This document shows positions 1-9,317 of a stretch of 15,658 nt of DNA, in pieces. This DNA comes from a virus. Its lineage: Duplodnaviria > Heunggongvirae > Uroviricota > Caudoviricetes. A program made the translations under genes and the position numbers. Numbering within the stretch: the stretch's first letter is position 1; the number at the start of each line of letters is the position of its first letter. The notes beneath the pieces are model-generated. The model saw nothing but the letters and a program-made list of their open reading frames with translations, searched no databases and had not been told where the DNA came from. The DNA lies in IMG/VR virus record IMGVR_UViG_2721755662_000003; one strand, given 5' to 3'.

Positions 1-1218
1 ATGAACAAACTGAGCGATACCTTGCTAAGGAAACTTCATGGTAAGCCAGCGGAGAAAAACACGTTTTATAGTGATGGCGGAAACCTGAGCGTGAAATATT
101 TAACATCAGGGAAATTGACCTGGTATTTCACATACAGGGCCGGAACGGGAAGGGAGACACGACCCGAACGCATTAAGCTGGGAAGTTATCCTGATCTGAG
201 CCTGAAAGCAGCCAGGGAAAAAGCCGCACAGTGTCGCACATGGCTGGCTGAGGGGAAAAATCCACGTCATGAGATGAATTACACCGTACAGGAAGCGTTA
301 AAGCCCGTAACGGTTGGCGATGCGCTCACCTACTGGCTTGAGTATTACGTAAAGGAAAACCGCGTGGATTATATCGCCCTGAAAAGGCGACTTAATAATC
401 ACGTAATACAGCAGATTGGTGCTATGCCGCTGGATAAATGCGAGCTACGGCACTGGCTGGCCTGTTTTGACCAGGTGGCAAAGCGAACGCCTGTTACTGC
501 CGGATTCGTGCTACAGGCGTGCAAACAGGCGCTTAAGTTCTGCCGTAGGCGGCGCTATGCAATCAGCAACGTTCTGGACGATCTGAACGTTGCGGACGTT
601 GGGAAAAAACCGGATATAAGCGAACGTGTCTTAAGTAACAAAGAACTTGGCGAATTATTGCAGGCACTGGACAAAAAAATATTCTCCCCTTACTACGTCG
701 CGTTAATCCGCCTCCTGATTGTCTTCGGAGCCAGAACGGTAGAACTGAGGTTATCGGAGATCGGGGAGTGGGATTTTACGGAAATGCTATGGACCGTTCC
801 GAAGGAGCACAGCAAAACGAAGGTCGCAATATTCCGGCCCATACCGGAAGCGATCCTGCCGTTCGTCACGCAGCTGGTGGAGCAGAACAGGCACACGGGC
901 TTATTGCTGGGGGAAGTGAAACAGGAGGCCAGCGTATCGCAGTATGGAAGATTAGCGCACAGGAGGCTTAATCACCCTCACTGGTCACTGCATGACATCC
1001 GGCGCACCTTTACAACCATGCTGAACGATTTAGGCGTTGATCCGCATGTCGTGGAGCAGCTTACAGGCCACCAGATGCCAGGAATGCAGCGAGTTTATAA
1101 TCATTCCCGTTATCTGGATGCGAAACGCAATGCGCTGGATATGTGGACGGAGCGGTTAGGGATACTGGCGGGAACACATGAAAACGTAACCACGCTACCC
1201 GTAGCCAGAAGAAAATAA
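1..1218 (+). CDS. int: Tyrosine recombinase, P4-family integrase (405 aa)
   Basis: N-terminal arm-binding-like region (LSDTLLRKL..GKP..YSDGGNLSVKY..WYFTYR..IKLGSYPDLSLKAAREKA) and C-terminal catalytic region with HDIRRTF...GHQ...RVYNHSRY (His/Arg/Tyr pattern of tyrosine recombinases); ORF starts at window position 1. Confidence 0.9.
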   Translation: MNKLSDTLLRKLHGKPAEKNTFYSDGGNLSVKYLTSGKLTWYFTYRAGTGRETRPERIKLGSYPDLSLKAAREKAAQCRTWLAEGKNPRHEMNYTVQEALKPVTVGDALTYWLEYYVKENRVDYIALKRRLNNHVIQQIGAMPLDKCELRHWLACFDQVAKRTPVTAGFVLQACKQALKFCRRRRYAISNVLDDLNVADVGKKPDISERVLSNKELGELLQALDKKIFSPYYVALIRLLIVFGARTVELRLSEIGEWDFTEMLWTVPKEHSKTKVAIFRPIPEAILPFVTQLVEQNRHTGLLLGEVKQEASVSQYGRLAHRRLNHPHWSLHDIRRTFTTMLNDLGVDPHVVEQLTGHQMPGMQRVYNHSRYLDAKRNALDMWTERLGILAGTHENVTTLPVARRK

Positions 1219-1235
1219 TTTTTTTCGTGTTTTTT

Positions 1236-1251
1236 CAGTATGCGCATACTG
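1236..1251. promoter_or_regulatory. Perfect 16-bp palindrome CAGTATGCGCATACTG just downstream of int stop
   Basis: Read directly: cagtatgc/gcatactg is self-complementary; preceded by two T-runs; operator-like or hairpin. Confidence 0.4.
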
Positions 1252-1266
1252 GATATGCGAACAGAT

Positions 1267-1310
1267 ACAACGTGCAACAATGAGCAACAATGTGGAACAA
1301 CTACGAACAA
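1267..1310 (-). repeat. Five direct repeats of ACAA (minus-strand TTGT, mostly TTGTTC/G) with exact 10-bp phasing
   Basis: atACAA cgtgcaACAA tgagcaACAA tgtggaACAA ctacgaACAA at 1267,1277,1287,1297,1307; same motif as arrays at 7899-7949 and 15383-15408. Confidence 0.65.
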
Positions 1311-1405
1311 GAGGCGAAAAAGCGTACGGATTTATAAGTAGCTGATTTTTAATGTGTTACTGGTTTTTTGTACACTAGCGAATCACTCTTTAAAGAGCGA
1401 GAAAA

Positions 1406-1432
1406 AAGGCATGGAACAATATTTTATGCCTT
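1406..1432. terminator. Hairpin AAGGCAT-13 nt-ATGCCTT flanked by A-run and TTTGTATT; candidate bidirectional terminator between int and alpA
   Basis: 7-bp inverted repeat 1406-1412/1426-1432, T-rich flank on both strands. Confidence 0.35.
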
Positions 1433-1583
1433 TGTATTAACATGAATTTAAAAGATTTTATTCTTACTGTTTCATTTTCTGTAAATCATACATCCTCAGT
1501 ATTTGCCATTCATCACTCTAGCGGGAACAATACGACACAATAAGACACCTGATGACTCTTTAAGAAACGAAAGGGGGGCAATA

Positions 1584-1772
1584 GTGTTAAGCACTGATCG
1601 GTTTATACGTGAAAAAGAATGCGAAAAACTAACCGGCCTTAGCCGTACGTGTCGCTACCGCCTGGAAAAGGCCGGACAATTCCCATCACGTCGTAAACTT
1701 GGCGGTCGTTCCGTTGGCTGGTCTTTATCCGAGGTTCTGGCCTGGAAGGATAGCTGCAAGGCAGTTCATTAA
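1584..1772 (+). CDS. alpA: AlpA/Vis-family winged-helix regulator/excisionase (about 62 aa from GTG 1584; maximal ORF from ATG 1503)
   Basis: Sequence LSTDRFIREKECEKLTGLSRTCRYRLEKAGQFPSRRKLGGRSVGWSLSEVLAWKD matches the AlpA pattern; RBS aagggggg 5 nt upstream of GTG 1584. Confidence 0.85.
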   Translation: MLSTDRFIREKECEKLTGLSRTCRYRLEKAGQFPSRRKLGGRSVGWSLSEVLAWKDSCKAVH

Positions 1773-1922
1773 TCACGCTGGCGGCACGCAGCCGCCACAC
1801 ATCAATCATCTGAACACAGAGCTATAACCATGAAGATTGAATATACGCCAGAACGTGGGCGGGGATTCGTTCGCCCTGGTGAAACTGAAAAACAACAAAA
1901 TTGGGGTTTTTCAGGTATAAAA

Positions 1923-1950
1923 AAAGCGGCCCCGAAATGGAGCCGCCTTT
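1923..1950. terminator. GC hairpin (GCGGC-loop-GCCGC) with a 7-T run on the minus strand; probable terminator for the minus-strand small genes
   Basis: aaagcggc cccgaaatgga gccgccttt; A-run on + side gives T-run on minus strand. Confidence 0.4.
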
Positions 1951-2041
1951 CTGAACAGATAACCCGCTGCGCCGTTTGTGTGTGTGATCCCAAACATAAG
2001 CACGGGGATGATAGCCGTTATCAGGCTGGTGGGCAATGCAA

Positions 2042-2230
2042 TCAGTCTGGTTCAGTTCGTTGCCATACCTGCAATGAGCGCTTTTCCCTGTACTCTTTAA
2101 GGAATTGCTCAAGGGCAAAAGCACATGGCGCGAATCTTTCTGATTCATGCTCTATCTTTCTGCGCCGTCTTTTCCGTGCCGGTGATAATGTTTTGGTCAA
2201 TTCTTTATCGGTCATTGTGTTGTCCTGCAT
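2042..2230 (-). CDS. Hypothetical small basic protein (62 aa), in frame with and separated by a single TAA from the upstream RHH-like ORF
   Basis: ORF track; ARKRRRRK basic patch; no recognisable family. Confidence 0.35.
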   Translation of the reverse strand: MQDNTMTDKELTKTLSPARKRRRRKIEHESERFAPCAFALEQFLKEYREKRSLQVWQRTEPD

Positions 2231-2272
2231 AGCAATGCGCCGTAATACCTTACACCACGGCGCTGATGGTGA

Positions 2273-2452
2273 TTACTCTGGTTCTTTGGCCTTGCGCCGC
2301 TGGCGATATTCAACTTCTCGTTTTAATGCCGCAGTAACAAATTGCCCCGTACTTTCGCCAGGCATTTTTACCGCCTCAACATTGTTCATAACTTCATGCG
2401 GAACCCTTGCCGCAACGGTTTGTGATTTTGCGTTTACCGCTTTTGTCGCCAT
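2273..2452 (-). CDS. Small ribbon-helix-helix-like DNA-binding protein (59 aa), candidate island repressor; not in the ORF track because it is under 60 aa
   Basis: Hand translation of minus strand: MATKAVNAKSQTVAARVPHEVMNNVEAVKMPGESTGQFVTAALKREVEYRQRRKAKEPE; beta-strand then two helices pattern typical of RHH; SD GAGGGG 7 nt upstream of ATG; divergent from operator-bearing promoter. Confidence 0.5.
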   Translation of the reverse strand: MATKAVNAKSQTVAARVPHEVMNNVEAVKMPGESTGQFVTAALKREVEYRQRRKAKEPE

Positions 2453-2502
2453 GTGGTGTACCCCTCATAAAAAACAAATGCAGTATGCAGGAAAAAAAAT
2501 AA

Positions 2503-2555
2503 GTGTTCAACACTTGACGTGTTTAACACCTGGGTTTAAATTGGTGTTCAACACC
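2503..2555 (+). promoter_or_regulatory. Early promoter (TTGACG -35 at 2514-2519, 17-bp spacer, TAAATT -10 at 2537-2542) overlapped by three operator dyads GTGTTYAACAC
   Basis: Operators at 2503-2513, 2519-2529, 2544-2554, each GTGTT-N-AACAC; they cover the -35, spacer and start region. Confidence 0.55.
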
Positions 2556-2651
2556 TTGTTGGCGCAAGGTGCAGAAACGACGAAACCCGGCAGTGCGCTA
2601 ACACTAACCGGGCTTCTAACCACCAACGATAGCGAAAGTATCGAGGTAGCT

Positions 2652-2855
2652 ATGAGAAATCATACCACACACCCGCAAGGGCGGGACTCGCACAACCTGA
2701 ATAAATACATCTGGCGTTTTATCGCCCTGAGCACGGCACAACCGCGCGTGATTACCATTGAGGCCACCAGCGAACAGGAAGCACGCCAGCAATCTCCGGC
2801 TGGCTGCGTGATGGTATTCGCTGCCCGTATTCGCCAGGGGTCACATCATGCGTAA
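2652..2855 (+). CDS. Small protein (67 aa), possibly Icd-like/Ash-like family seen in P4-type elements; paralog of 3088-3309
   Basis: RBS gaggt 4 nt upstream of ATG 2652; C-terminal region KYIWRFIALS...IEATSEQEARQQ...VFAARIRQG mirrors second copy. Confidence 0.5.
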   Translation: MRNHTTHPQGRDSHNLNKYIWRFIALSTAQPRVITIEATSEQEARQQSPAGCVMVFAARIRQGSHHA

Positions 2856-2859
2856 AAAC

Positions 2860-3140
2860 CGCTTGCAAAAAATTATCACGGGGCTGTATGCTTCCCCCGT
2901 CGCCCACATGGCGACCGGGTTTGACAGCCTGAATACATCTGGCGGACAGCCGCCCACATCCGATAAGCGGTTTTTTTGTGTCCGTAAACCTACCCATACC
3001 CGCATTATGGCGGGGCGTAACGGGGGAGCCTTTGTGCTCGCTGGTTTCCAGATGACCAGTCTGTCAACCCTGTTACGTCTCGCCACCATGTTTGACAGCG
3101 TAGTAGCGAGACTCCTTAAAATTCATCTGGGAGCCTTTCA
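2860..3140 (+). promoter_or_regulatory. Structured leader between the two paralogous small genes: nested stem-loops, repeated GTTTGACAGC and GCCCACAT motifs, terminator-like GCGG+T7
   Basis: GGCTGT(2872)...CCCGTCGCC cacat GGCGACCGGG...ACAGCC(2930); GGCGG acag CCGCC (2932-2945); aagcgg ttttttt (2956-2967); CTGTCAA(3062)/TTGACAG(3092); GTCTCGC(3077)/GCGAGAC(3107). Confidence 0.35.
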
Positions 3141-3309
3141 CATGGCTGTATCCGCACGCCCTTATTTTGTCTGGCGCTTTATGCAGTGCCTGACAGACAG
3201 CATTGCAATATTCACCGTTACCGCTGCCACTGAGCGCGAAGCACGTGCACAGCTGCCGCACGCACATCTGATTTTTGTCGCCCGTATTCGTCAGGGGGTA
3301 GGCTTATGA
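3088..3309 (+). CDS. Small protein, paralog of 2652-2855 (start uncertain: ATG 3088 or ATG 3142)
   Basis: PYFVWRFMQCL...TVTAATEREARAQL...IFVARIRQG parallels first copy; the N-terminal half of the 153-aa track ORF is probably not coding. Confidence 0.5.
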   Translation: MFDSVVARLLKIHLGAFHMAVSARPYFVWRFMQCLTDSIAIFTVTAATEREARAQLPHAHLIFVARIRQGVGL

Positions 3310-3536
3310 GTCAGGAAATCACACTACAACAGGCAGCAGAACGCGCCCACCAAATCGAAGTTATTTGCGCACTGGCAGAGGATTACCCTGGCATGATGAC
3401 CGACAGCGAATCAGGGGCAATCATCGGCTTACTTAAACGCCTTAGCGGTGAGGTCTGCGTATTCCTGAGCGATGAACAGGAAAGAAGAACGCTTATTTCT
3501 AACGAAAAAAAATGCGGAGGGGTACATGTGCAATAA
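3306..3536 (+). CDS. Hypothetical protein (76 aa), early operon
   Basis: ORF track; start overlaps previous stop (ATGA coupling). Confidence 0.5.
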   Translation: MSQEITLQQAAERAHQIEVICALAEDYPGMMTDSESGAIIGLLKRLSGEVCVFLSDEQERRTLISNEKKCGGVHVQ

Positions 3537-3747
3537 AACCACACCGGACGCAGCCGCCGCCGCGCTCACTACGCTGATGCACGCGCTTATTGATATTTCT
3601 GTTATTGCTGACAGGGCGCATAAACACGCAGCCAGAGAATCAGAATGCATCTTCCATTTAGCATTTGTGCAGCTAAAAGCCGATCAGGCACTGGATAAGG
3701 CCGGAAAAATTATCATGGCTGATGTGCAGGAGGTGCACCATGCATAA
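3527..3747 (+). CDS. Hypothetical protein (about 73 aa from ATG 3527; track start 3472)
   Basis: SD ggagggg 7 nt upstream of ATG 3527; overlaps flanking genes by a few nt. Confidence 0.5.
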
Positions 3748-4105
3748 TCTGTCAATTTCTGACCTTAACAGCATTCAGTTTGATGAGAAATTTACCGGGC
3801 AGTTGCTGGTCAATGTGGAGAACGGGCGCATAGTGCGTAATTATCACCTGCCGGATGGTGCAATTGCCGGAAGCGTTGAAGCATTGCTGGAACTGGCGGA
3901 ACGTGCGCGACTGATTAAGCCGTCAACGAGCCATCACGATGATGATCTGCATTTTACCGGATGTATGGTGAGTCACTACGAAAACGGCGTCGAGGTATCC
4001 TGTGAACGGCTGCGTGATGATTGCTGTTTCGGCACACTGCCGGAATTTATCGAGTTGCTGACCAGTTGCGGTTATCAGGTCATTCAGGGGGGTAAACATG
4101 CGTGA
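3740..4105 (+). CDS. Hypothetical protein (about 121 aa from ATG 3740; track start 3722)
   Basis: SD aggagg 8 nt upstream of ATG 3740; stop overlaps next start. Confidence 0.55.
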   Translation: MHNLSISDLNSIQFDEKFTGQLLVNVENGRIVRNYHLPDGAIAGSVEALLELAERARLIKPSTSHHDDDLHFTGCMVSHYENGVEVSCERLRDDCCFGTLPEFIELLTSCGYQVIQGGKHA

Positions 4106-4331
4106 TGATCGTTTTAATTCCCTGAAACAGGAATTTTCCGGCGTTCCTGATGATGCGGCTGATGCGCTTTCGTCAATGCCAGAACTTATTAGAGCGGCTT
4201 TTTTCTTACTTTCCACGAGAGAATATAAATCAACGGGGCTTGATGTACTGAATATCGCCGCCGATTATGCGGAATATGTGGCAGAGGCGCGTTATAGAAG
4301 AAAATTTCCTGAGGATGTAAGCCATGCGTGA
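4098..4331 (+). CDS. Hypothetical protein (77 aa)
   Basis: ORF track; translational coupling to neighbours. Confidence 0.5.
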   Translation: MRDDRFNSLKQEFSGVPDDAADALSSMPELIRAAFFLLSTREYKSTGLDVLNIAADYAEYVAEARYRRKFPEDVSHA

Positions 4332-4557
4332 TATTTACCACGAAACAATAGACCGCGCATTTCTTGCACTTTCTCACAGTGAAAACATGCTGGAAATATT
4401 GCGCATATGGCTTGAAACACTTGGCGACAATGAACGCGACAAACAAAAATCAAGAATTGCCACGGCATCAATAACGCTTCTTGAGCCTGTAATAATGGAA
4501 CTGCAAGAAATAGATCTATTGCACGACAGATATAAAGAACAGCACACCGGAGAATAA
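4324..4557 (+). CDS. Hypothetical protein (77 aa)
   Basis: ORF track; translational coupling to neighbours. Confidence 0.5.
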   Translation: MRDIYHETIDRAFLALSHSENMLEILRIWLETLGDNERDKQKSRIATASITLLEPVIMELQEIDLLHDRYKEQHTGE

Positions 4558-4562
4558 AAATA

Positions 4563-4862
4563 ATGAAACTTAAATATTCTGGCTTAACTGCCAGTGGCAA
4601 CACTCACCCTAAATTTACGCGCGGCGATATTTACCGCGACCAGTACGGCGGCACGGTAATGATTAAGGGCGTGGAAGAACGGCGCGTAACCTACCGCCGT
4701 GAAGGTTACGAATATGATTGCGTGATGCCTGTTTATCAGTTCCGGCGTGATTTTTCTCTGGTACAGACCGCGCCGCATAACGTGTCCACCAGCAACGCCA
4801 GGGCACGGGCAAACATCCAGAAGCTGAAAACCATGATTAACGGATTCAGGGGTAAAAAATGA
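4563..4862 (+). CDS. Hypothetical protein (99 aa) immediately upstream of and overlapping primase start
   Basis: ORF track; stop overlaps primase ATG (ATGA). Confidence 0.5.
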   Translation: MKLKYSGLTASGNTHPKFTRGDIYRDQYGGTVMIKGVEERRVTYRREGYEYDCVMPVYQFRRDFSLVQTAPHNVSTSNARARANIQKLKTMINGFRGKK

Positions 4863-6613
4863 AACTGGCACCGAACGTAAAACAGCAGTCACGCGGCATA
4901 AAACACAAAGAAACAGAAGTCATTATTTTTGCGGGTAGTGATGCCTGGTCACACGCAAAACAATGGCAGGAACATGACGCGCGTATGGCCGGAGATAATG
5001 AGCCTCCTGTGTGGCTTGGGGAGCAGCAGTTATCCGAACTGGATAAGCTGCAAATTGTGCCGGAAGGCAGAAAATCCGTGCGCATATTCAGGGCCGGATA
5101 TCTTGCGCCAGTAATGATAAAGGCGATTGGTCAGAAGCTGGCGGCGGCAGGCGTACAGGATGCAAATTTTTACCCTGATGGTATGCACGGTCAGAAGGTG
5201 GAGAACTGGCGCGAATATCTGGCCCGTGAGCGCCAGAATCTTTCTGATGGTCTGGTCATTGAGCTTCCGGTAAAGCAAAAGGCGCAACTTTCGCAGATGG
5301 CGGACAGTGAGCGCGCGCAGCTGCTTGCCGATCGCTTTGATGGCGTTTGCGTACATCCTGAAAGTGAAATCGTTCACGTATGGCGCGGCGGGGTATGGTG
5401 TCCGGTCAGCACAATGGAACTTAGCCGCGAAATGGTGGCGATCTATTCAGAGCACAGGGCCACTTTCAGCAAGCGCGTAATCAATAACGCCGTGGAAGCG
5501 TTAAAAGTTATTGCCGAACCAATGGGCGAGCCGTCCGGCGATTTGTTGCCGTTCGCCAATGGTGCGCTTGACCTGAAAACGGGGGAATTTTCCCCGCACA
5601 CGCCGGAGAACTGGATCACCACGCACAACGGCATTGAGTACACGCCACCAGCACCAGGGGAGAACATCCGCGATAACGCGCCAAACTTTCATAAATGGCT
5701 TGAGCACGCAGCCGGAAAAGACCCGCGCAAGATGATGCGTATATGTGCCGCGCTGTACATGATTATGGCGAACCGGTACGACTGGCAGATGTTTATTGAG
5801 GCCACCGGAGACGGCGGGAGCGGTAAAAGTACATTCACACACATAGCCAGCCTTCTGGCAGGGAAACAGAACACGGTAAGCGCTGAAATGACATCGCTTG
5901 ATGATGCTGGTGGACGTGCGCAGGTTGTCGGGAGTCGTCTTATCGTCCTGGCTGACCAGCCGAAATATACAGGCGAAGGAACGGGCATCAAGAAAATCAC
6001 GGGCGGTGACCCCGTGGAAATTAACCCGAAATACGAAAAGCGTTTCACGGCGGTAATCAGGGCGGTGGTGCTGGCGACCAACAATAACCCGATGATATTC
6101 ACCGAACGGGCCGGAGGTGTGGCACGTCGTCGCGTGATTTTCCGTTTCGACAATATCGTCAGTGAGGCCGAAAAAGACAGGGAGCTACCGGAAAAGATCG
6201 CGGCTGAAATCCCTGTCATTATCCGCCGATTGCTGGCGAACTTTACCGACCCTGAGAAGGCACGGGCTTTACTACTGGAACAGCGTGACGGTGATGAAGC
6301 TCTGGCAATAAAGCAACAGACGGATCCGGTTATTGAGTTTTGCCAGTTCCTGAATTTTCTGGAGGAAGCACGCGGCCTGATGATGGGCGGCGGTGGCGAT
6401 TCAGTGAAGTACACGACCAGAAACAGCCTTTACCGCGTCTATCTGGCGTTTATGGCGTACGCAGGCAGGAGCAAACCGCTAAACGTAAATGACTTTGGCA
6501 AGGCTATGAAGCCAGCCGCGAAAGTTTACGGACATGAATATATTACGCGGAAAGTTAAGGGAGTAACGCAGACTAACGCAATAACAACAGACGAGTGCGA
6601 CGCGTTTTTATAA
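4859..6613 (+). CDS. Replication protein: P4-family primase C-terminal type (D5_N-like region plus SF3 helicase NTPase), 584 aa
   Basis: Walker A GDGGSGKST, Walker-B-like LIVLADQP, D5_N-like region LPFANGALDLKTGEFSPHTPENWITTHNGIEY; followed directly by iteron ori. Confidence 0.85.
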   Translation: MKLAPNVKQQSRGIKHKETEVIIFAGSDAWSHAKQWQEHDARMAGDNEPPVWLGEQQLSELDKLQIVPEGRKSVRIFRAGYLAPVMIKAIGQKLAAAGVQDANFYPDGMHGQKVENWREYLARERQNLSDGLVIELPVKQKAQLSQMADSERAQLLADRFDGVCVHPESEIVHVWRGGVWCPVSTMELSREMVAIYSEHRATFSKRVINNAVEALKVIAEPMGEPSGDLLPFANGALDLKTGEFSPHTPENWITTHNGIEYTPPAPGENIRDNAPNFHKWLEHAAGKDPRKMMRICAALYMIMANRYDWQMFIEATGDGGSGKSTFTHIASLLAGKQNTVSAEMTSLDDAGGRAQVVGSRLIVLADQPKYTGEGTGIKKITGGDPVEINPKYEKRFTAVIRAVVLATNNNPMIFTERAGGVARRRVIFRFDNIVSEAEKDRELPEKIAAEIPVIIRRLLANFTDPEKARALLLEQRDGDEALAIKQQTDPVIEFCQFLNFLEEARGLMMGGGGDSVKYTTRNSLYRVYLAFMAYAGRSKPLNVNDFGKAMKPAAKVYGHEYITRKVKGVTQTNAITTDECDAFL

Positions 6614-8159: not shown

Positions 8160-9317
8160 ATGCCGAGAATAATCGAATTACGCCAGCAGAAAACCGCCAT
8201 TAAAAATCAGATGCGCGACATGCTGGAGAACGCGGAAAAAGAAAACCGCAGTCTTAACGATGCTGAGGGCGCAAAATTTGACGAATTACGCGCTAAAGCT
8301 GAATCCCTCGATAAAGACATTTCCCGCCTTGAAGCCATTGCAGACGAAGAGCGCAGCAAGCCAGGTAAAAGCAGTCAGACCACTGACCCAGCCGAACTAC
8401 GTCACTACATTCTGACAGGTGAAACCCGCGCATTAAGTACAGGCGTTCCCGCTGATGGTGGTTATACCGTTATCCCCGAACTGAACACCGAAATCATGCG
8501 AATGCTGACGGATGAATCCACCATGCGCCGCATCTGTACCGTGAAGAAAATCAGCAGCAACGAGTTTAAGCAGCTTGTTTCCGCTGGCGGTGCGACCGTT
8601 AACCACGGTGAAGAGGGTAAGGCACGCGAACAGACCAGCACCCCGCAGATTAACGAGGTGAGCATTAAGCTGTATCCGGTCTATGCGTACCCGCGCACCA
8701 CGCAGGAAATCGTGGATTTTTCCGATGTGGACATCCTTTCATGGCTGACGGGCGAGATTGGCGACAACTTCACGGAAACCGAAGAAAGCGATCTGGTTGT
8801 GGGCGACGGTGACAAAAAAGCAAAAGGCTTTTTATCCGTACCCCGTGCAGAGAAGAACGACAAAGAGCGTGATTTTGGTACGTTGCAGGTAATTAAACCT
8901 TCCGAATCTCTGGCGTGGACATCTGCGGACCCGCTGATCGACCTGAAATTTGCATTACGTAAAAAATACCGCAAAAACGCGGTCTGGGTGGTTAACTCCA
9001 CGACGGCGGCAAAACTTCAGAAGGTGAAGAACGCGAACGGTGATTACATCTGGCGCGACCGTTTACAGGCGGGTGATCCTGATACGTTACTGGGCCTTCC
9101 GGTCGAATATCTGGAGTTTATGCCGGATAACGTTATTGCCCTGGGTGACTTCAAACGCGGTTACTACATTGTTGATCACGAAACAGGTGTTCGCACCAGA
9201 CCGGACAACCTCACAGAGCCGGGCTTCATCAAAATTTTCACGCAGAAATATTTAGGCGGTGGCGTGGTGGATTCGAACGCGATCAAGATTCTGGAACTGC
9301 CACAGGACGACGATTAA
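8160..9317 (+). CDS. Major capsid protein, HK97 fold, with N-terminal coiled-coil delta (scaffold) domain; 385 aa
   Basis: N-terminal 100 aa charged/helical (delta-domain-like), remainder typical HK97-family MCP; same length as HK97 gp5; prohead protease gene follows. Confidence 0.9.
   Translation: MPRIIELRQQKTAIKNQMRDMLENAEKENRSLNDAEGAKFDELRAKAESLDKDISRLEAIADEERSKPGKSSQTTDPAELRHYILTGETRALSTGVPADGGYTVIPELNTEIMRMLTDESTMRRICTVKKISSNEFKQLVSAGGATVNHGEEGKAREQTSTPQINEVSIKLYPVYAYPRTTQEIVDFSDVDILSWLTGEIGDNFTETEESDLVVGDGDKKAKGFLSVPRAEKNDKERDFGTLQVIKPSESLAWTSADPLIDLKFALRKKYRKNAVWVVNSTTAAKLQKVKNANGDYIWRDRLQAGDPDTLLGLPVEYLEFMPDNVIALGDFKRGYYIVDHETGVRTRPDNLTEPGFIKIFTQKYLGGGVVDSNAIKILELPQDDD

Follow-up and report, generated by a model that had tools for sequence, protein, structure and literature searches.

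Paired Icd-like genes around a predicted C4 antisense-RNA cassette: a probable P1/P4-type RNA switch in a capsid-forming Escherichia coli island

Why does a mobile island keep two related small genes in tandem ahead of its primase? The locus in question lies in IMG/VR record IMGVR_UViG_2721755662_000003, a stretch of 15,658 nucleotides (the window, in what follows) whose element is a ~15.6-kb island inserted in the tqsA gene of Escherichia coli. A sequence-only reading of this DNA had noticed two small open reading frames (ORFs) at 2652-3309 that end in closely similar 45-residue blocks, had likened them tentatively to Icd-like or Ash-like genes near the primase of P4-type elements, and had suggested that duplication and divergence directed them to different host or helper targets. 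The coordinates it gave are right and the peptides it quoted are exact translations; it did not see the C4 antisense-RNA cassette that separates the two domains and best accounts for their arrangement. We hold with moderate confidence that the two Icd genes are paralogues placed at the two ends of an RNA switch of the P1 immI/P4 immunity type, with which the early (replication) operon of a capsid-forming phage-inducible chromosomal island (cf-PICI) begins.

Between the two Icd domains lie, in this order, a putative promoter, the target sites a1 and b1 with a weak terminator, C4, and the target sites a2 and b2. The two genes and the elements between them are listed here with the evidence by which each was placed.

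2652-2855, plus strand: ORF1, Icd-like gene #1 (Icd#1), 67 amino acids (aa), with its own Shine-Dalgarno (SD) sequence; family model NF033153, conserved ATG and SD, ratio of non-synonymous to synonymous divergence (dN/dS).
2836-2855, plus strand: putative coupling junction with an SD-like AGGGG (2836-2840), ATG (2848) and TAA (2853-2855); conserved in 27 of 29 loci.
2848-3309, plus strand: long 'eta-like' open frame (ORF2), 153 aa, running through the RNA cassette and ending in frame as Icd-like gene #2; length and stop counts.
2863-2892, plus strand: putative internal promoter, TTGCAA (2863-2868), 18-nt spacer, TATGCT (2887-2892); collinear with the P1 promoter P1c4.
2886-2977, plus strand: upstream target module, counterpart of P1 a1/b1, P4 seqA and Gifsy-1 IsrK; Rfam and pairing.
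3003-3090, plus strand: predicted gene for a C4/CI-type antisense RNA; Rfam RF01695 and fold.
3092-3133, plus strand: downstream target module, a2 TTGACAG (3092-3098) and b2 TCATCTGG (3123-3130); pairing counts.
3142-3309, plus strand: nested short Icd-like gene #2 (Icd#2), 55 aa (MAVSARPYFVWRF...), the P1 icd/P4 kil counterpart; SD, ATG context and homology.

The Rfam scan, which covered 1200-5000, places C4 (RF01695, clan CL00128) at 3003-3090 with 72.6 bits against a gathering threshold (GA) of 45 (E=1.9e-13, model positions 1-87 of 87). The same segment is predicted to fold into the Rfam structure with a minimum free energy (MFE) of -47 kcal/mol (z=-6.5), and its internal helices are 96-100% paired in 24 variants. 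The family c4-a1b1 (RF03163) scores 46.8 bits at 2886-2935, which is borderline against its GA of 46.7 and independently backed by the covarying C4 pairing described below; isrK (RF01394) reaches 35.2 bits at 2899-2977, below its GA of 50, and a weak terminator-like hairpin with a U7 run occupies 2948-2977. The internal promoter aligns with the annotated P1 promoter P1c4 (P51b; 3196-3224 of the P1 record, L002), is homologous also to P4 PLE, and keeps its -10 core T-A-T-n-n-T in 24 of 24 variants. Its predicted start near 2899 lies downstream of ATG 2848 and coincides with the 5' end of the IsrK-like match.

In C4, two unpaired segments are complementary to the two target modules. The a' junction (CUGUCAA, 3061-3067) is complementary to UUGACAG at a1 (TTGACAG, 2921-2927) and at a2, and the b' loop of hairpin 2 (3045-3055) is complementary to CAUCUGG at b1 (CATCTGG, 2936-2942) and to UCAUCUGG at b2. 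The latter site overlaps the SD sequence GGGAG (3129-3133) of the short Icd#2.

This complementarity is kept while the sequences change. In a first locus set of 25 unique sequences, which comprises 7 loop alleles and 2 junction alleles, b1 and b2 are complementary to the loop and a1 and a2 to the junction in every sequence. An earlier 18-nt pattern (16 specified bases) run on genome contigs had returned nearly all chance matches; a scan of IMG/VR with a longer, gapped pattern of the C4 core added P1-like phage-plasmids and other islands. The resulting 78 contexts hold 20 loop alleles, 2 junction alleles and 24 loop/junction combinations, and the cognate match to b1 and b2 spans at least 7 nt in all 78, against at most 5 nt in 377 of 380 non-cognate comparisons. 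Formal pair counts were made on a 24-sequence alignment. Eight b'-b2 pairs were tested, six of which changed on both sides, with all four Watson-Crick types represented and 95.8% of the cells paired; the five gap-free b1-b' pairs tested were 100% paired, four of them covarying, and a'-a1 and a'-a2 were likewise 100% paired with two covarying pairs each. Slid controls were 35-49% paired, and none of 500 shuffles equalled the observed covariation score. Covariation of loop and target is the principle behind P1/P7 heteroimmunity (reviewed in PMC12197685), and the allele set found here is much larger than the one known from that pair.

The b-target heptamer CATCTGG occurs a further time, at 2708-2714 within ORF1, where it forms the Y-I-W codons of the WRF motif; P1 icd reads TTCATCTGG at this place. 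The additional copy could be a coincidence, an extra C4 contact or a trace of the origin of the allele.

The genes on either side of the cassette are related to each other and to the cell division inhibitor of P1. With the NCBIfam model NF033153 (phage_ICD_like; cutoff 25 bits, domain of 48 positions) ORF1 scores 69.8 bits and ORF2 49.9 bits, and the experimentally named P1 Icd (L002 3471-3692) scores 52.6 bits. The P4 coding sequence (CDS) listed as 'cI gene product' reaches 73.9 bits over its last 50 residues (aa 85-132). The Icd-like call of the sequence-only reading is thereby borne out, and such a gene does lie upstream of the P4 primase, the end of the P4 'cI' ORF being Kil. The C-terminal blocks of ORF1 and ORF2 are 42% identical over 45 aa (BLASTP, E=1e-10), the ORF2 domain and P1 Icd share 50% identity over 44 aa, and both genes already carry the name Icd-like in RefSeq, ORF2 as WP_032346737.1. 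By these scores and alignments ORF1 and ORF2 are true paralogues within the Icd/Kil family. BLASTP of either ORF against the P4 cI/kil ORF gave weak or no alignment, and the P4 relationship is visible because a hidden Markov model (NF033153) was used. A tblastn search with ORF1 against 50,697 phage records returned a single match, in a 16.5-kb record that is presumably a satellite, and did not recover P1. In Pfam, a scan of both ORFs and their neighbours gave no match for either ORF. Phage_ASH (PF10554) was absent from that scan at E<=1, and the Ash-like call has been dropped; some longer homologues of the frame upstream of ORF1 do have PF10554, in their extra N-terminal part.

The tandem pair is conserved across related islands. 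Among 31 related IMG/VR loci, which were found with ORF2, 29 have both domains at the same spacing of about 457 nt (~457-460 nt). The ATG and SD of ORF1 are kept in 29 loci behind five different leader sequences, and its length is 62-67 aa in 28 of 29. With dN/dS values of 0.40 for the Icd domain of ORF1 and 0.26 for that of ORF2, both domains are by this measure under purifying selection.

One locus departs from the tandem form: L032 (3380-3526 and upstream) carries a single hybrid icd with an ORF1-type leader and N-terminus and an ORF2-type domain, and has no C4 cassette. It appears to be a deletion via recombination between the paralogues, and an island of this type should lack C4 immunity.

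ORF2 is 153-155 aa long in 120 database homologues. Its codons 1-104 show dN/dS of 0.8-1.6 together with a synonymous divergence lower than in the domain, which points to constraint on the nucleotides and not on the protein. Only the last ~55 codons of ORF2 (3142-3309) thus behave as conserved protein, and the first ~100 hold the predicted RNA genes. The nested gene that begins there has its SD GGGAG 8 nt before ATG 3142, the ATG context is invariant in 25 sequences, and its start MAVSARPYFVWRF... parallels the P1 Icd start MVNANPCTRPEFIWRF.... All 81 C4 contexts have an Icd domain downstream, 113-122 nt away except in one, where the distance is 164 nt. When 1.84 billion representative proteins were searched with the profile, only 247 clusters were recovered. 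In the best 150 of these, the domain lies at most 10 residues from the C-terminus in 130, is preceded by 0-591 residues, and has a Met at most 20 residues upstream in 138. Family-wide, what precedes the Icd-like domain as a long N-terminal 'extension' mostly lacks conservation as protein. AlphaFold predicts a beta-beta-alpha-beta fold for the short Icd#2 at a predicted local distance difference test (pLDDT) score of 84. By analogy with P1 Icd and P4 Kil, the Icd peptides probably arrest host division or growth, an action that may be connected with the Icd-dependent growth arrest which Silas et al. report (see below); the P1 record describes Icd as 'inhibitor of cell division; apparently required for expression of ant'.

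The cassette is embedded in a frame that stays open through C4 in all variants. In the window the long frame has no stop codon, against 4 and 7 in the other two plus-strand frames, and over 28 unique island-type variants the stops sum to 9 in the long frame and to 146 and 186 in the other two. There is no in-frame stop in 25 of the 28, and the other frames have 1-10 stops each, varying between variants. A -1 indel at b1 is offset by a +1 indel in the terminator loop or in the C4 loop. The frame opens at an ATG that overlaps the stop of ORF1 (ATGCGTAA), and this junction or a one-base variant of it is kept in 27 of 29 loci, its SD-like AGGGG lying within the codons that specify the conserved C-terminal RQG. 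The same CAGGGG-ATGA design recurs at the end of Icd#2 (3293-3309) and at P1 icd/ant1 (L002 3671-3692). The start/stop overlaps measure 8 nt and 4 nt, each with an SD-like CAGGGG 7 nt upstream, and would allow translational coupling; the recurring design fits the remark in the P1 record that icd is apparently required for expression of ant. An open frame with unconstrained amino acids has precedents in P4 eta/kil and Gifsy-1 orf45.

In the two Icd genes as in P1 icd, the CAGGGG that encodes the conserved C-terminal RQG or QGG stands 7 nt ahead of the ATG at which the following ORF overlaps. The shared protein signature may therefore owe part of its conservation to a role as Shine-Dalgarno sequence.

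The 3.6-kb query region around this locus (1400-5000) is 100% identical in E. coli strain FORC_069 (RefSeq), and the gene list of the island was read from the RefSeq annotation of the identical FORC_069 region and its flanks. The early genes are an integrase, an AlpA-type regulator, YlcI/YnfO on the minus strand and two CDS named 'host cell division inhibitor Icd-like'. They are followed by five small hypothetical genes, a DUF4222 gene, a P4-alpha-type primase, SSB and PerC, and finally by the late genes for major capsid, prohead protease, portal, head closure, connector, HNH, TerS and TerL. By this gene set, int, alpA and primase together with its own capsid and terminase genes in ~15 kb, the element is a cf-PICI. 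The P4-type identity assumed in the sequence-only reading does not hold: a P4-like satellite is ruled out, as the annotation contains no sid, delta, psu or epsilon and instead the element's own capsid, protease, portal, connectors, HNH, TerS and TerL. Two further features enter the mechanism that we propose for this element.

2503-2554, plus strand: upstream promoter, TTGACG (2514-2519), 17-nt spacer, TAAATT (2537-2542); scan score 9/12, function putative.
3306-6613, plus strand: downstream genes presumed to be gated by the switch, namely five small ORFs, DUF4222 and the primase (4859-6613); RefSeq and ORF list.

Within 3306-6613, seven of the eight junctions between genes overlap by 4-11 nt and the remaining one (4557/4563) is a 5-nt gap.

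Judging from P1 and P4, the resting island would use its internal promoter to make a leader transcript from which C4 is processed. C4 would pair with a2/b2, occlude the ribosome-binding site of the short Icd#2 and block its translation, and the untranslated transcript would be terminated, in a Rho-dependent manner as in P4, so that the small genes, DUF4222 and the primase stay silent. Upon helper-triggered, AlpA-dependent induction, transcripts would start further upstream, at the 2514-2542 promoter or perhaps at alpA itself. Icd#1, with its own SD and a start that is not a C4 target, could be translated from these transcripts. Ribosomes that end Icd#1 at TAA 2853-2855 would restart at ATG 2848 and translate through a1b1, C4 and a2b2, and translation across the cassette would prevent C4 pairing and termination, as with P4 eta, so that expression reaches the replication genes. 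Icd#1 would then stand in for the N-terminal part of P4 eta. It is by this analogy that we infer an override of immunity by translation through C4.

Several points weigh against this reading. The C4 RNA at this locus is predicted, as regards its existence as well as its ends and processing, and the internal promoter matches the consensus at only 8 of 12 positions and was not called by the promoter scan. Of 76 unique C4 contexts, 28 show the tandem arrangement with an upstream Icd, which P1-type loci lack; the other 48 have no upstream copy, and Icd#1 is thus not essential to the cassette. The long frame is broken in one locus (L026). In P1-type loci the frame through c4 ends 2 nt before the icd ATG, whereas it is fused to Icd#2 in island-type loci, and the P1 c4 ORF is dispensable. 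An open long frame could moreover persist by descent, the RNA sequence itself being conserved. If Icd#1 is toxic, it would need a separate control, and the SymR-like candidate discussed below scores under the Rfam threshold. Foldseek searches of the PDB with the Icd#2 model gave nothing better than E=0.28 at a template modelling (TM) score of about 0.5, and since there is no informative structural neighbour the fold does not suggest the biochemical action of the protein.

The main alternative differs from the proposed switch in the bypass step only. It takes the long frame for an artefact: C4 and the short Icd#2 are real, the 153-aa ORF is an over-extended call, Icd#1 is independent and under its own control, and immunity is overcome otherwise, with C4 titrated by a burst of target transcript or with an antirepressor-like factor in place of the bypass. 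A dN/dS of about 1 in the ORF2 extension is what this view would expect, and the short P1-type frame that ends before icd and the broken frame in L026 can be counted for it as well. From b1 to the C4 loop two frames are open and not just one, the N-terminal lengths of 0-591 aa in the family look like over-extension by gene callers, and a separate antisense RNA candidate lies opposite Icd#1. The same view has to account for a frame that is stop-free in 25 of 28 variants when the other frames are not, for compensating indels that restore it, for the conserved ATG/stop overlap with its SD-like AGGGG, and for the experimental precedents of P4 eta and Gifsy-1 orf45. We regard it as doubtful.

An unlikely explanation, though compatible with the RNA switch, is that Icd-like proteins act in defence, as superinfection-exclusion or programmed-cell-death effectors triggered by incoming-phage proteins. 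Its basis is the prophage-borne system of ECOR61, possibly a similar locus, for which Silas et al. (bioRxiv 10.1101/2023.04.06.535777) report Icd-dependent growth arrest; the transposon hits in its 'extension' could equally lie in a C4-type RNA.

The proposal of the sequence-only reading would make the pair a product of tandem duplication and divergence, two effectors with different host or helper targets in an arrangement free of regulatory meaning. It can point to domains that are ~40% identical and yet both under purifying selection, and to a pair kept in 29 of 31 related loci. It leaves the RNA anatomy unexplained, that is the cassette between the copies, the overlap of b2 with the SD, the coupling junction and the covariation over 20 alleles, and it sits badly with the natural recombinant that has a single hybrid icd, with the single copy in 48 of 76 C4-icd cassettes, and with the fact that no Icd protein has a known target. 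We consider it improbable. That the Icd-like proteins are transcriptional repressors is scarcely credible, since this label of the PHROG families 6196 and 1743, matched at 154.7 and 82.2 bits, probably propagates from the P4 record, most likely from an obsolete 'cI gene product' CDS that is really CI RNA and Kil, and since the model has neither a DNA-binding fold nor a structural neighbour.

Under the RNA switch that we prefer, induced transcripts would arrive from the region upstream of Icd#1, where two more features are found.

2579-2653, minus strand: candidate cis-antisense RNA (SymR-like) over the SD (GAGG, 2643-2646) and start codon of Icd#1; structure and covariation.
1830-2651, plus strand: upstream open frame fused to Icd#1, part of a 341-aa ORF (1830-2855); ORF list, length not conserved.

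The rightward promoter of this region is divergent from YlcI/YnfO (2273-2452, minus strand) and is accompanied by three 11-bp palindromes GTGTT[C/T]AACAC (2503-2513, 2519-2529 and 2544-2554) that flank its -35 and cover its predicted start. We presume the palindromes to be operators; they have the look of binding sites for a repressor, possibly YlcI/YnfO.

The antisense candidate matches Rfam SymR (RF01809) with 33.3 bits, under the GA of 61, its resemblance to SymR being one of position and shape only. Its predicted fold has an MFE of -36.5 kcal/mol (z=-6.05), both hairpins are kept in 11 variants with compensatory changes at 8 pairs, and invariant G-U pairs are valid on the minus strand only. 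A putative extended -10 (TGgTATGAT) corresponds to plus-strand positions 2659-2667, inside ORF1 codons 3-6, and reads TATAAT in locus L003. These properties suggest a type-I-toxin-like control of Icd#1.

The 341-aa ORF amounts to 360 codons from stop to stop (1773-2855) and is in frame with alpA, with only the alpA stop (1770-1772) in between. It runs antisense to YlcI/YnfO and to a conserved 62-aa ORF (2042-2230). It is not Icd#1 in its conserved form: the upstream stop-to-stop frame varies from 69 to 471 aa, whereas the SD and ATG at 2652 are constant, and the 341-aa version was rejected as a conserved protein. A third Icd copy in the 'Icd-like pseudogene' that the Prokaryotic Genome Annotation Pipeline (PGAP) calls at 1830-2277 is ruled out too, only two domains being detected in the window; the call covers the front of the 341-aa frame. 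Databases contain 2298 long 'Icd-like' proteins of this type. Opposite YlcI, all 17 YlcI alleles (35-100% identical) leave the long frame free of stops, although elsewhere it is often broken. The strand opposite YlcI was judged by amino-acid conservation, codon-position periodicity having been dropped because the third codon positions of both strands coincide in the overlap; the minus frame is slightly better conserved in amino acids.

For the 62-aa ORF on the minus strand (MQDNTMTDKELTKTLSPARKRRRRK...) there is a match to phrog_21027, and many related loci keep it with 100% conservation. RefSeq leaves it without annotation, its stretch being covered by the 'Icd-like pseudogene'.

These frames lead us to a further and tentative idea, for which the chances are clearly lower than for the switch itself. 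The ORFs may have been selected for being translated and not for their products, in a coupled chain that runs from alpA through the ~340-codon frame, Icd#1, the C4 frame and Icd#2 to the primase. If so, the helper-induced transcript would escape two antisense locks, one set on Icd#1 by the SymR-like RNA and the other on Icd#2 by C4. The tandem Icd copy would serve to pass ribosomes into the immunity region, and satellites that differ in C4 specificity, of which more than 20 kinds exist, would form lineages without immunity to one another.

Much of this biology extends the well-studied mechanisms of P1 and P4, and the surprise is accordingly moderate. Already known are the Icd-like naming in RefSeq, the C4 families (C4 and c4-a1b1 entered Rfam in 2010), and the eta/kil logic of P4 together with its presence in PICIs. 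In the searchable literature we found no description of the tandem icd-C4-icd variant, whose upstream paralogue would hand over by coupling to the frame across the RNA genes, nor of the breadth of C4 specificity alleles. How Gram-negative PICIs silence their replication genes until a helper arrives is poorly described; the locus suggests RNA immunity of the P1/P4 type with many exclusive specificities, which would predict the satellites that coexist with or exclude each other. An annotation error is corrected as well, as the C4 region is annotated only as CDS, hidden under an 'Icd-like protein', in 122 complete E. coli genomes that carry it. The misannotated extension bears on experiments in which transposon hits or deletions are mapped to Icd 'extensions'.

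Among known elements, the cf-PICIs of the EcCIEDL933 family resemble the island in the presence and order of integrase, alpA, primase, capsid, protease, portal, connectors, HNH, TerS and TerL and in a size of ~15.5 kb (bioRxiv 10.1101/2022.09.08.507074). That paper names alpA but neither icd nor any repressor or immunity RNA. The window is unlikely to be EcCIEDL933 itself, because at least 80% of the 1400-5000 query is covered in only 97 of 5426 genomes.

Gifsy-1 offers a comparison for the translated RNA. Its orf45 is translated across a processed stable RNA and coupled to anrP, with nucleotides conserved and amino acids not (PMC4825925). The isrK-orf45-anrP region shares with the island an IsrK-like module of a1b1 and terminator and an AUGA coupling to the next gene; it differs in that the short RNA activates translation in trans and in that the ORF is not described as Icd-like.

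P1 immI is the closer relative of the cassette, being collinear and recognisably homologous, with the same order of P1c4 promoter, a1/b1, c4, a2/b2 and icd. The a allele UUGACAG is identical, b2 overlaps the icd SD and carries the label 'repression of icd ant translation' in the P1 record, and the CAGGGG...ATGA at the end of icd couples it to the next gene. P1 has no upstream Icd copy, it is a phage-plasmid and not a cf-PICI satellite, and the genes that it gates encode the antirepressor (ant1/2), whereas those of the island are small ORFs and the primase.

P4 supplies the counterpart for the nested frames. In its CDS 8168-8584 (L234, NC_001609; 137 aa), C4/CI occupies 8420-8507 and the Icd domain spans aa 85-132; Rfam scores within this 'cI' CDS are 74.9 bits for C4, 60.8 bits for isrK and 44.1 bits for c4-a1b1. 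The reference record still lists it as 'cI gene product / transcriptional repressor', though it holds CI RNA and Kil. Read from Met-74, the CDS gives a 65-aa protein, which matches P4 Kil in size. Like the island, P4 has a longer ORF across the immunity RNA and its targets, within which a short Icd-family gene (kil, 65 aa) lies nested in frame; an alpA/vis homologue is found upstream and the primase operon downstream. According to PMC10111431, which cites Forti et al. 1999, Kil is a truncated form, and full-length eta is translated only from the upstream promoter, is coupled to the alpA homologue, and prevents termination by its translation; the same paper reports CI and seqA homologues in PICI 'Bro' genes. 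The model adopted here is that of P4, in which an immunity-sensitive internal promoter is opposed to an immunity-insensitive upstream transcript translated through the RNA region (PLL, PLE, seqA, cI RNA, seqC, timm). P4 Kil is ~28% identical to ORF1. P4 carries sid, delta and psu, where the island encodes its own capsid and terminase, and eta has its own N-terminal part, where the long frame of the island begins by overlap with a separate Icd gene.

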